Shown: positions 26,756 to 27,744 of the stretch, piece by piece | Layout of the letters: the number at the start of each line of letters is the position of its first letter | How positions within the stretch are numbered: the first letter of the stretch is position 1 | DNA from: a virus | Lineage: Duplodnaviria; Heunggongvirae; Uroviricota; Caudoviricetes | IMG/VR virus record: IMGVR_UViG_2541047816_000005 | Location: 1-47,623 of that record | Length of the DNA: 47,623 nt | Direction: 5' to 3' (one strand) | Position numbers and translations under genes: made by a program | Notes under the pieces: model-generated | What the model was told of the DNA's origin: nothing | The model's input: only the letters and a program-made list of their open reading frames with translations | Database searches by the model: none

Positions 26756-27241
26756 CTAAATACGCACTTTAAGATAAGTCAGCCCCGGATGAAGCCAGTA
26801 AGCCGGCACTTTTTTAAAGGGTGGAGTATTAAAATCACGAAGAAGAGCCTCCCGCACAATTGCATCCTTATCAGCACCACTGGCCAGCGCTTCAATCTCA
26901 GCGGCTACCTGAAGATATCCCATGCAACGGCCAACGCGCTTCATCAGCCCCTGCTTTTTATTGTTCTTCAGGTAATCAATGGCAAATTCAATGAGCTCCT
27001 CACTGTGCTGGTGCGATGGAGGTGTTACTTTCCCATTTTCTGAGATGGTTATTTTCCCAGCATCACCGGATACAACAAAGGATGGCCGGTTACACTCCCA
27101 TTCCAGCTCACTGAAATTATCATTATGAATACTGAAACACTCTGCGAGATTTCTGCTCATCACTTTCCGACAATAATCGTCAAACGCAGCAAACTGCTCA
27201 TCGCGGCGTTTTTCTTCAGGCCGCTGAAGATGCTCTTTCAA
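26756..27241 (-). CDS. hypothetical protein inserted in the lysis cassette
   Basis: 161 aa ORF between holin and endolysin, same strand; no family recognised. Confidence 0.5.
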   Translation of the reverse strand: MKEHLQRPEEKRRDEQFAAFDDYCRKVMSRNLAECFSIHNDNFSELEWECNRPSFVVSGDAGKITISENGKVTPPSHQHSEELIEFAIDYLKNNKKQGLMKRVGRCMGYLQVAAEIEALASGADKDAIVREALLRDFNTPPFKKVPAYWLHPGLTYLKVRI

Positions 27242-27255
27242 TCGTGAAGCGCAGC

Positions 27256-27744
27256 TTAGATGCCCGCGCGATCAAGAATAGCTTCTTTCATTTCATCTGC
27301 TGCAAGCACCTCATTTTTTGTTGGGGCGCTTTTTTTCAATTCAGCGATATAGCGCTCCAGTTTTTCAATACGTGATTCAACATCATCTTTTTCTGACCGC
27401 AGTGTTGACGGCGGCATCTTCAGAGCATCAGTAATTCTTCCCGGTAGCTTTCCTTTGTAGATTATCAACACATCCTGCGCCTCTAAAATTATGGGGCGCT
27501 TTTCCGGCAACGGTTCGTTCCCTTCACATAACCCGGCAGCAACATCCATGAAAAACTGCTTCGCCTGCTTTTTCGCCTCAGCTTCGTAAAACTCCAGCGT
27601 GGCACCTTCAGTACGGTCAAGACTAATCGCCACATTTGGCAACAACAGTGACGGATACCCACCAATTTCCAGTACCACAGTAACAGTAATCTTATCCGGG
27701 TAATTATTTATCCCTTTAACAACCAGTTCGTATTTTTTCTTCAT
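27256..27744 (-). CDS. hypothetical protein inserted in the lysis cassette
   Basis: 162 aa ORF starting 5 nt after the holin stop; C-terminal coiled coil; no family recognised. Confidence 0.5.
   Translation of the reverse strand: MKKKYELVVKGINNYPDKITVTVVLEIGGYPSLLLPNVAISLDRTEGATLEFYEAEAKKQAKQFFMDVAAGLCEGNEPLPEKRPIILEAQDVLIIYKGKLPGRITDALKMPPSTLRSEKDDVESRIEKLERYIAELKKSAPTKNEVLAADEMKEAILDRAGI

Follow-up and report, generated by a model that had tools for sequence, protein, structure and literature searches.

The stretch of DNA analysed here (the window, 47,623 nt) is a complete lambdoid prophage flanked by btsS (yehU) and mlrA (yehV), and its nearest match is a prophage in E. coli O16:H6 CU37RT-2 (99.3-99.9% identity). 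Its lysis region contains two open reading frames, ORF1 and ORF2, lying between a P21-type holin gene upstream and a SAR-like lysozyme gene downstream, with every gene on the minus strand (Table 1). A preliminary description of this DNA reported them as two separate genes of 162 and 161 aa on the same strand. Both frames exist, although, as set out below, they are the halves of one gene. The first was said to start 5 nt after the holin stop; counted on the sequence, 4 nt separate the TAA of the holin frame (27751-27749) from the ORF1 ATG (27744). The hydropathy of the endolysin peaks at residue 9 (1.74), within its SAR-like segment.

Table 1. Features of the lysis region and its surroundings in the window
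Feature	Coordinates	Strand	Basis and remarks
DUF1378 gene, upstream of holin	28323..28505	-	Pfam PF07125, E=2.1e-36
DUF826 gene, upstream of holin	28040..28285	-	Pfam PF05696, E=7.5e-44; relative's annotation
P21-type (class II) holin, M1/M4 dual-start motif, pseudogene in the window	27749..27963	-	Pfam Phage_holin_2_1
GGAG, Shine-Dalgarno-like, for ORF1; within the 3' end of the holin gene, 9 nt from the ATG	27754..27757	-	Sequence reading
Long-form ydfR-family gene (phrog_1085), frameshifted	26756..27744	-	End-to-end alignment to the Stx2_95 990-nt ORF; 329 codons if intact
ORF1: DUF1327 domain (aa 1-~75), low-confidence linker, start of the helical/coiled-coil region	27256..27744	-	Pfam PF07041, phrog_1085; ORF list: 162 aa, ATG start
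1-nt deletion splitting the ydfR-family gene	27263..27264	-	DNA alignment with 2013C-3033 (L004) and Stx2_95 (L005)
ORF2: end of the helical region and conserved C-terminal domain without a Pfam model	26756..27241	-	phrog_1085 positions 140-296; ORF list: 161 aa, TTG start
Endolysin (phage lysozyme), N-terminal SAR-like hydrophobic segment	26186..26719	-	Pfam PF00959, E=2.4e-24
Rz spanin	25382..25849	-	Pfam Phage_lysis, E=1.7e-49
Rz1 ORF embedded in Rz	25444-25629	-	ORF list

Between the endolysin and Rz genes there is a strong terminator-like hairpin of 14 pairs with a T-run after it (26063-26095, minus strand). Next comes a 50-aa ORF (25851-26003, minus strand; phrog_4493), with one likely transmembrane segment (hydropathy 2.13), whose stop abuts the Rz start. 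On the other side of the lysis genes, the annotation of a 99.9%-identical relative gives a SASA/NanS-p-type esterase (28642-30603), a TolA-like ORF (31202-31630), tRNA-Arg and tRNA-Ile genes and, on the opposite strand, an OmpC-like porin gene (32840-33982). This cargo, within 28642-33982, is typical of Stx-phage-like late regions.

ORF1 belongs to the Pfam family DUF1327 (PF07041): its residues 1-100 score 147.6 bits (E=1.2e-43), against a gathering threshold of 25 bits that served as the cut-off for membership. While a Pfam search with ORF2 gave no match, both frames match one and the same phage protein family, phrog_1085, whose profile spans 296 positions. ORF1 covers positions 1-151 (E=2.4e-75) and ORF2 positions 140-296 (E=3.1e-103), so that the whole profile is present in the window, in two different frames. 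The DUF1327 match of ORF1 and the phrog_1085 matches of both show that these frames are no chance occurrences. At the protein level, the two align head to tail on full-length proteins named 'YdfR family' of 329, 330 and 296 aa (clusters P0001, P0003 and P0004), with ORF2 falling on residues ~170-329 of P0001. In the Stx2a-converting phage Stx2_95, the entire gap between holin and endolysin is occupied by one 990-nt ORF of 329 aa (L005:1766-2755), and intact versions of 329, 296, 268 and 213 aa occupy the same slot in L005, L018, L019, L002 and L008; their sources also include FDAARGOS_946 (329 aa), ATCC 25922 (296 aa) and Stx2 phage 86 (268 aa). Homologues at ~30% identity (P0175, P0179, P0182, P0198 and P0210) likewise carry the N-terminal domain, the coiled coil and the C-terminal domain in a single chain. 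Among the relatives, dN/dS in the C-terminal domain is 0.14-0.40, a sign of purifying selection, which indicates that this domain evolved as coding sequence continuous with the N-terminal half.

The break itself is a single missing nucleotide. In a four-way DNA alignment, GCGCGGCGCATC becomes GCGCGG-GCATC in the window and in CU37RT-2, which lack one C between 27264 and 27263 (gene index 481) that 2013C-3033 (L004) and Stx2_95 (L005) retain. The junction reads GAT CGC GCG GGC ATC TAA, and ORF1 thus ends in two out-of-frame codons and a stop. When the C is restored, and only then, the profile is covered by one polypeptide, of 329 stop-free codons. By shifting the frame, the deletion would end translation from the holin-coupled ATG after 162 aa. 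Thus, the interval very probably holds one long-form YdfR/DUF1327 gene (phrog_1085), frameshifted, that is the usual occupant of this slot, rather than two genes. The idea of two separate unknown genes was rejected on the grounds that the frames are consecutive parts of phrog_1085 and form an uninterrupted 990-nt ORF in Stx2_95. From its sequence, we regard the window copy as a pseudogenised member of that family.

The same deletion is common to the window, CU37RT-2 (L001) and CE10 (L017), and the window differs from CE10 by one substitution within the gene. Exact protein matches in public contigs number 326 for ORF2 and 64 for ORF1. Since the deletion recurs in independently sequenced complete genomes (CU37RT-2 and CE10) and ORF2 is found on hundreds of contigs, we take the split to be a real, clonally spread allele. 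It is extremely unlikely that the split stems from an error in sequencing or assembly, or that programmed frameshifting overcomes it and the full-length protein is still made. Single-base indels are a common type of error, and the deletion in the adjacent holin gene, which no genome aligned to the window shares, could be one; against this stand the recurrence of the ydfR deletion and the numerous exact copies of ORF2. Sequencing error at the ydfR site was rejected because independent complete genomes share the allele. The bases on either side of the gap, GCGCGG and GCATC, contain no long homopolymer and no slippery heptamer of the type X XXY YYZ, and relatives are plainly in frame with one more C; as no slippery site was found on reading the junction, programmed -1 ribosomal frameshifting was also rejected.

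A different 1-nt deletion, within an A-run, interrupts the gene in a second lineage (2013C-3033 and other STEC), where it leaves 194 aa and a remnant. Judging from the alignments, this distinct frameshift suggests that the long form has decayed more than once. The first allele is common, which implies at a minimum that there is no strong counter-selection against it.

What becomes of the two halves bears on whether they could be genuine genes with functions of their own, one for a DUF1327/coiled-coil protein and one for a C-terminal domain translated by itself, with the split fixed and the modules working apart. Each module is found alone in the same slot in nature, as YdfR proteins of 103-114 aa and as coiled-coil plus C-terminal domain proteins of 185-213 aa, so that the C-terminal module is able to exist without DUF1327, and the split allele is widespread. 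On the other hand, the stand-alone forms have their own N-terminus (MNHEEMNQRF...) directly after the holin and ORF2 does not. Sequence reading found no ATG start in ORF2, only a TTG without a Shine-Dalgarno sequence, and the frame is open for just 30 nt upstream of that TTG. The split alleles are near-identical, with the single substitution between the window and CE10, which makes the split look recent and leaves no signal of selection since it arose, and the other frameshift in 2013C-3033 speaks for decay. We therefore consider separate function of the two frames highly improbable. Because the sole start is a TTG without a Shine-Dalgarno sequence, the 161 codons of ORF2 are most likely an untranslated relic. 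The next in-frame GTG/ATG codons lie at 27162/27159, with a weak GGAAA as the only ribosome-binding candidate nearby, and the C-terminal domain may be translated from them at a low level. The truncated 162-aa product of ORF1 would retain the DUF1327 module and would resemble the natural short forms.

The preliminary description held that a pinholin and a SAR endolysin are usually adjacent and presented the two frames as inserted between them. For this cassette type in E. coli the premise does not apply, as a ydfR-family gene usually lies there. In the Qin cryptic prophage of K-12, essQ (holin) is followed, after a 4-nt gap, by ydfR (b1555, 103 aa, PF07041) and then by rrrQ (lysozyme). The window gene shares with K-12 YdfR this arrangement and the N-terminal domain; the two differ in that K-12 YdfR consists of the N-terminal domain and a short helix only, whereas the window gene is frameshifted and, if intact, would encode 329 aa with a linker, a coiled coil and an extra C-terminal domain. 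The 1.9-kb segment from holin to endolysin matches 368 phage records, chiefly Stx1 and Stx2 phages that carry a short YdfR gene there, and 3,098 of 5,426 complete E. coli genomes have a match to the 1,021-nt gene region, which in 491 cases spans at least 80% of the region; some 491-549 complete genomes carry the long form. From these comparisons, the holin-endolysin slot is the normal home of the ydfR family in E. coli lambdoid and Stx-type prophages. The family is thus a routine component of this junction, the outcome that the preliminary description itself had named as refuting its reading, and the case of the window is an ordinary one.

The family is modular. Besides the short DUF1327-only and the stand-alone forms described above, there are long forms of 268-333 aa. 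The closest of these to the window gene, BCI50300.1 of Stx2_95 (329 aa) and clusters P0001/P0137, are orthologous (~94% DNA identity) and fill the whole holin-endolysin gap; they are intact, whereas in the window copy the loss of one C leaves frames of 162 and 161 codons. Gp05 of Stx2 phage 86 (268 aa) and the 213-aa stand-alone forms share the slot and the C-terminal domain with the window gene, but their DUF1327/linker part is shorter or missing. A convergent, reverse-strand ORF of 104/105 aa (phrog_1853; L008:4652-4966, L015:4807-5124 and L002:3585-3899, all minus strand), absent from the window, lies immediately downstream both of these 213/268-aa forms and, in a different prophage, of a homologue with ~30% identity. 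Its two copies share 45% identity, which marks it as a genuine gene that is kept together with its neighbor. A Pfam search with the C-terminal domain of the distant homologues and with the 104/105-aa partner ORFs gave no match.

One of the distant homologues, P0175 (L015:4001-4801, a prophage of GCA_029142665.1), is encoded between a Q antiterminator and a holin of the Phage_holin_2_3 type, with HicAB on the other strand. This placement suggests that the family is tied to the late-operon/lysis region and not strictly to the S-R junction. A profile scan of genome contigs identified three loci, all in Escherichia or Shigella. A further and common variant, P0042 (305 aa, 275 contigs; L021:3001-3918), has the first ~205 residues in common and then an unrelated C-terminus: it switches after ...NLAECF to ~100 aa without a Pfam match, and a 511-nt unannotated gap precedes the lysozyme gene. 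Either a swapped domain or a rearrangement followed by read-through could account for this. A giant protein of 3748 aa (P0196) has 25 separate stretches that match profile positions ~181-229, the segment before the C-terminal domain; a short motif in common with a repeat protein may explain this, or the match may be a compositional artefact. In RefSeq/PGAP, the intact 329- and 296-codon genes of FDAARGOS_946 (L018:1217-2206) and ATCC 25922 (L019:1217-2107) are both labelled as a 336-nt 'YdfR family protein, pseudogene, missing C-terminus', with the remainder unannotated, which is an annotation artefact. As the NCBI pipeline mis-annotates intact genes in this way, surveys based on annotation would undercount the long form.

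The holin upstream was treated in the preliminary description as intact, yet its frame is interrupted. Relative to CU37RT-2, CE10, 2013C-3033 and Stx2_95 (L001, L017, L004 and L005), one G is missing from the window between 27854 and 27853, and this is the sole indel across 30 kb against CU37RT-2 (CP082774). No full-length holin ORF is present in the window: the frame ends after ...SPSQWAQ and matches the first 33 positions alone of the Pfam profile Phage_holin_2_1. With the frame stopping there, the product would lack the second transmembrane domain. The deletion may have inactivated the gene recently, or it may be an error of sequencing. If it is real, the window has a degenerate lysis cassette with pseudogenes in place of two neighboring late genes, and with both the holin and its neighbor frameshifted the prophage would probably be lysis-defective.

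The repaired protein of ~329 aa is predicted to be soluble. Its highest 19-residue Kyte-Doolittle hydropathy is 1.31, below the SAR segment of the endolysin and the 50-aa ORF, and the protein shows no transmembrane segment, SAR segment or lipobox. There was also no match to lysis-protein Pfam families, in agreement with the earlier remark that the frames do not resemble lysis proteins; the gene is best described as a non-lysis accessory gene within a lysis cassette. A first structure model based on 12 close E. coli sequences reached a pLDDT of 46.6, and a second AlphaFold model based on 21 sequences, including the ~30%-identity homologues, a mean pLDDT of 61. In the latter, the N-terminal domain comprises three strands and a helix (pLDDT 71-94), the linker and the helical middle are of low confidence, and the C-terminal domain forms a small sheet with helices (pLDDT 63-88). 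The C-terminal domain, undescribed and of ~110 aa, is marked by the motifs GRCMGxLQVAAEIE (GRCMGYLQVAAEIEA), NPPFK and WxxPGxxYLKxR (W..PG..YLK.R), and it is this domain that occurs with the convergent 104-aa gene in some relatives. A search for structural neighbors of the second model returned none that was significant, and a PDB search with the sequence profile gave nothing below E=0.14. Of the remote-homology and structure checks suggested beforehand, the former therefore located the family (DUF1327, phrog_1085) and the latter returned no informative fold match.

The N-terminal domain offers a possible functional lead, as residues 1-74 of ORF1 are 45% identical to residues 1-74 of K-12 YdfR. 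Among the literature on YdfR/DUF1327, the only experimental lead we found is Gopel et al. (2026; PMC13232886), who report that K-12 YdfR interacts with the catalytic N-terminal half of RNase E (two-hybrid and co-purification), that residues 1-72 suffice for this binding and that RNA co-purifies. In that paper, ydfR is described as silent in K-12 under standard growth, its overexpression as changing few transcripts, and growth arrest is described for yegJ; the paper also cites an envelope-integrity screen in which the Keio mutant of ydfR scored. By analogy, we tentatively propose that the intact protein may be a cytoplasmic late-operon accessory protein that engages RNase E and/or RNA, outside the lysis machinery, a reading that we hold to be possible though short of probable. 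Through its DUF1327 domain it would attach to the N-terminal catalytic part of host RNase E, perhaps along with RNA, as reported for residues 1-72 of K-12 YdfR, and it might thereby alter RNA turnover in the late phase of infection. The proposal draws on a single two-hybrid/co-purification study of a 45%-identical homologue. Late co-expression, also suggested in the preliminary description, is plausible from the shared strand, the 4-nt distance from the holin stop and the GGAG just upstream.

Phage proteins that engage host RNase E are known: T7 gp0.7, phiKZ Dip and T4 Srd are RNase E modulators, expressed as early or middle proteins and with demonstrated effects on RNA decay. The likeness to these is at most a works-like analogy, and neither the profile search against the PDB nor the structural-neighbor search found a sequence or fold relationship to them. 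YdfR also differs from them in that binding alone is reported and overexpression changed few transcripts (PMC13232886). A bolder form of the proposal is that the holin slot hosts modular, late-expressed, host-manipulating proteins, in which a DUF1327 part docks on RNase E, and may bind RNA, and a swappable C-terminal part provides the effector or specificity function, with the split and truncated alleles as functional short forms; we consider this unlikely.

The tight linkage to the holin gene would be explained if the gene, intact or truncated, were a lysis regulator that tunes the timing of the pinholin or of the SAR endolysin. The gene lies 4 nt after the holin stop at every inspected E. 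coli locus of this cassette, a distant homologue sits in the Q-to-lysis region of another prophage, and the Keio ydfR mutant appears in the envelope-integrity screen cited in PMC13232886. The last observation could, however, reflect polarity on rrrQ. Counting against a regulator, the protein has no transmembrane or signal segment, the P0175 gene is not adjacent to its holin, which is of another type (Phage_holin_2_3), and the gene is repeatedly truncated or frameshifted; moreover, the phage 21 S-R-Rz/Rz1 cassette is not known to need a ydfR-like gene. A role in regulating lysis, as raised in the preliminary description, therefore seems unlikely, and a membrane-acting version of it receives no support from the repaired protein, which is free of transmembrane segments.

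The same description also raised an abortive-infection or toxin-antidote module. The moron-like position, the variable or swapped C-terminal parts, the convergent 104/105-aa ORF beside the gene in some relatives (45% identity between copies) and the HicAB pair adjoining the distant homologue would fit a prophage defence, abortive-infection or toxin-antitoxin function. A type II toxin-antitoxin system would consist of two small adjacent genes with their own starts, paired in relatives, whereas here the relatives have one fused ORF. ORF1 and ORF2 matched no toxin or antitoxin family in Pfam, PADLOC or NCBIfam. Searches of PADLOC-DB v2 at E<=0.1 gave no match for ORF1, ORF2, P0001, P0175, P0090 or the 104/105-aa partner ORFs, and NCBIfam none for any form or for the 104-aa partner. 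The partner ORF is moreover absent from the window, and the gene belongs to a late operon and has no promoter-like site of its own on the coding strand. The silence of ydfR in K-12 under standard growth, as given in PMC13232886, would be unexpected for a function that protects the lysogen, and overexpression there changed few transcripts, with growth arrest described for yegJ instead. Overall, these results leave a defence or toxin-antitoxin role very unlikely, and the suggestion finds no backing in the PADLOC and NCBIfam searches.

With the frameshifted-gene reading, the window copy is a pseudogenised member, in canonical position, of an already catalogued family (DUF1327, phrog_1085, 'YdfR family protein' at NCBI). 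The locus therefore has little discovery value, given that the family is catalogued and that hundreds of public assemblies contain precisely this split allele. For annotation, paired "hypothetical proteins" at the ydfR locus are to be read as one pseudogene. The value that remains lies in the family itself, with its un-named conserved C-terminal domain and, in some relatives, the convergent 104-aa partner. Although extremely frequent among E. coli and Stx phages, the YdfR family is essentially unstudied, and would be a reasonable target for work on RNase E interaction.

A further difference from the closest genome lies in the portal/protease region, where a 221-nt segment of the window (17447-17667; L011 18012-18232) aligns twice to that genome. 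The latter is ~325 nt longer at this segment, a repeat-associated indel. The portal gene of the closest relative prophage is called 'frameshifted' by PGAP; in the window, the region contains ORFs at 17889-19253 and 16993-17892 that overlap by 4 nt.
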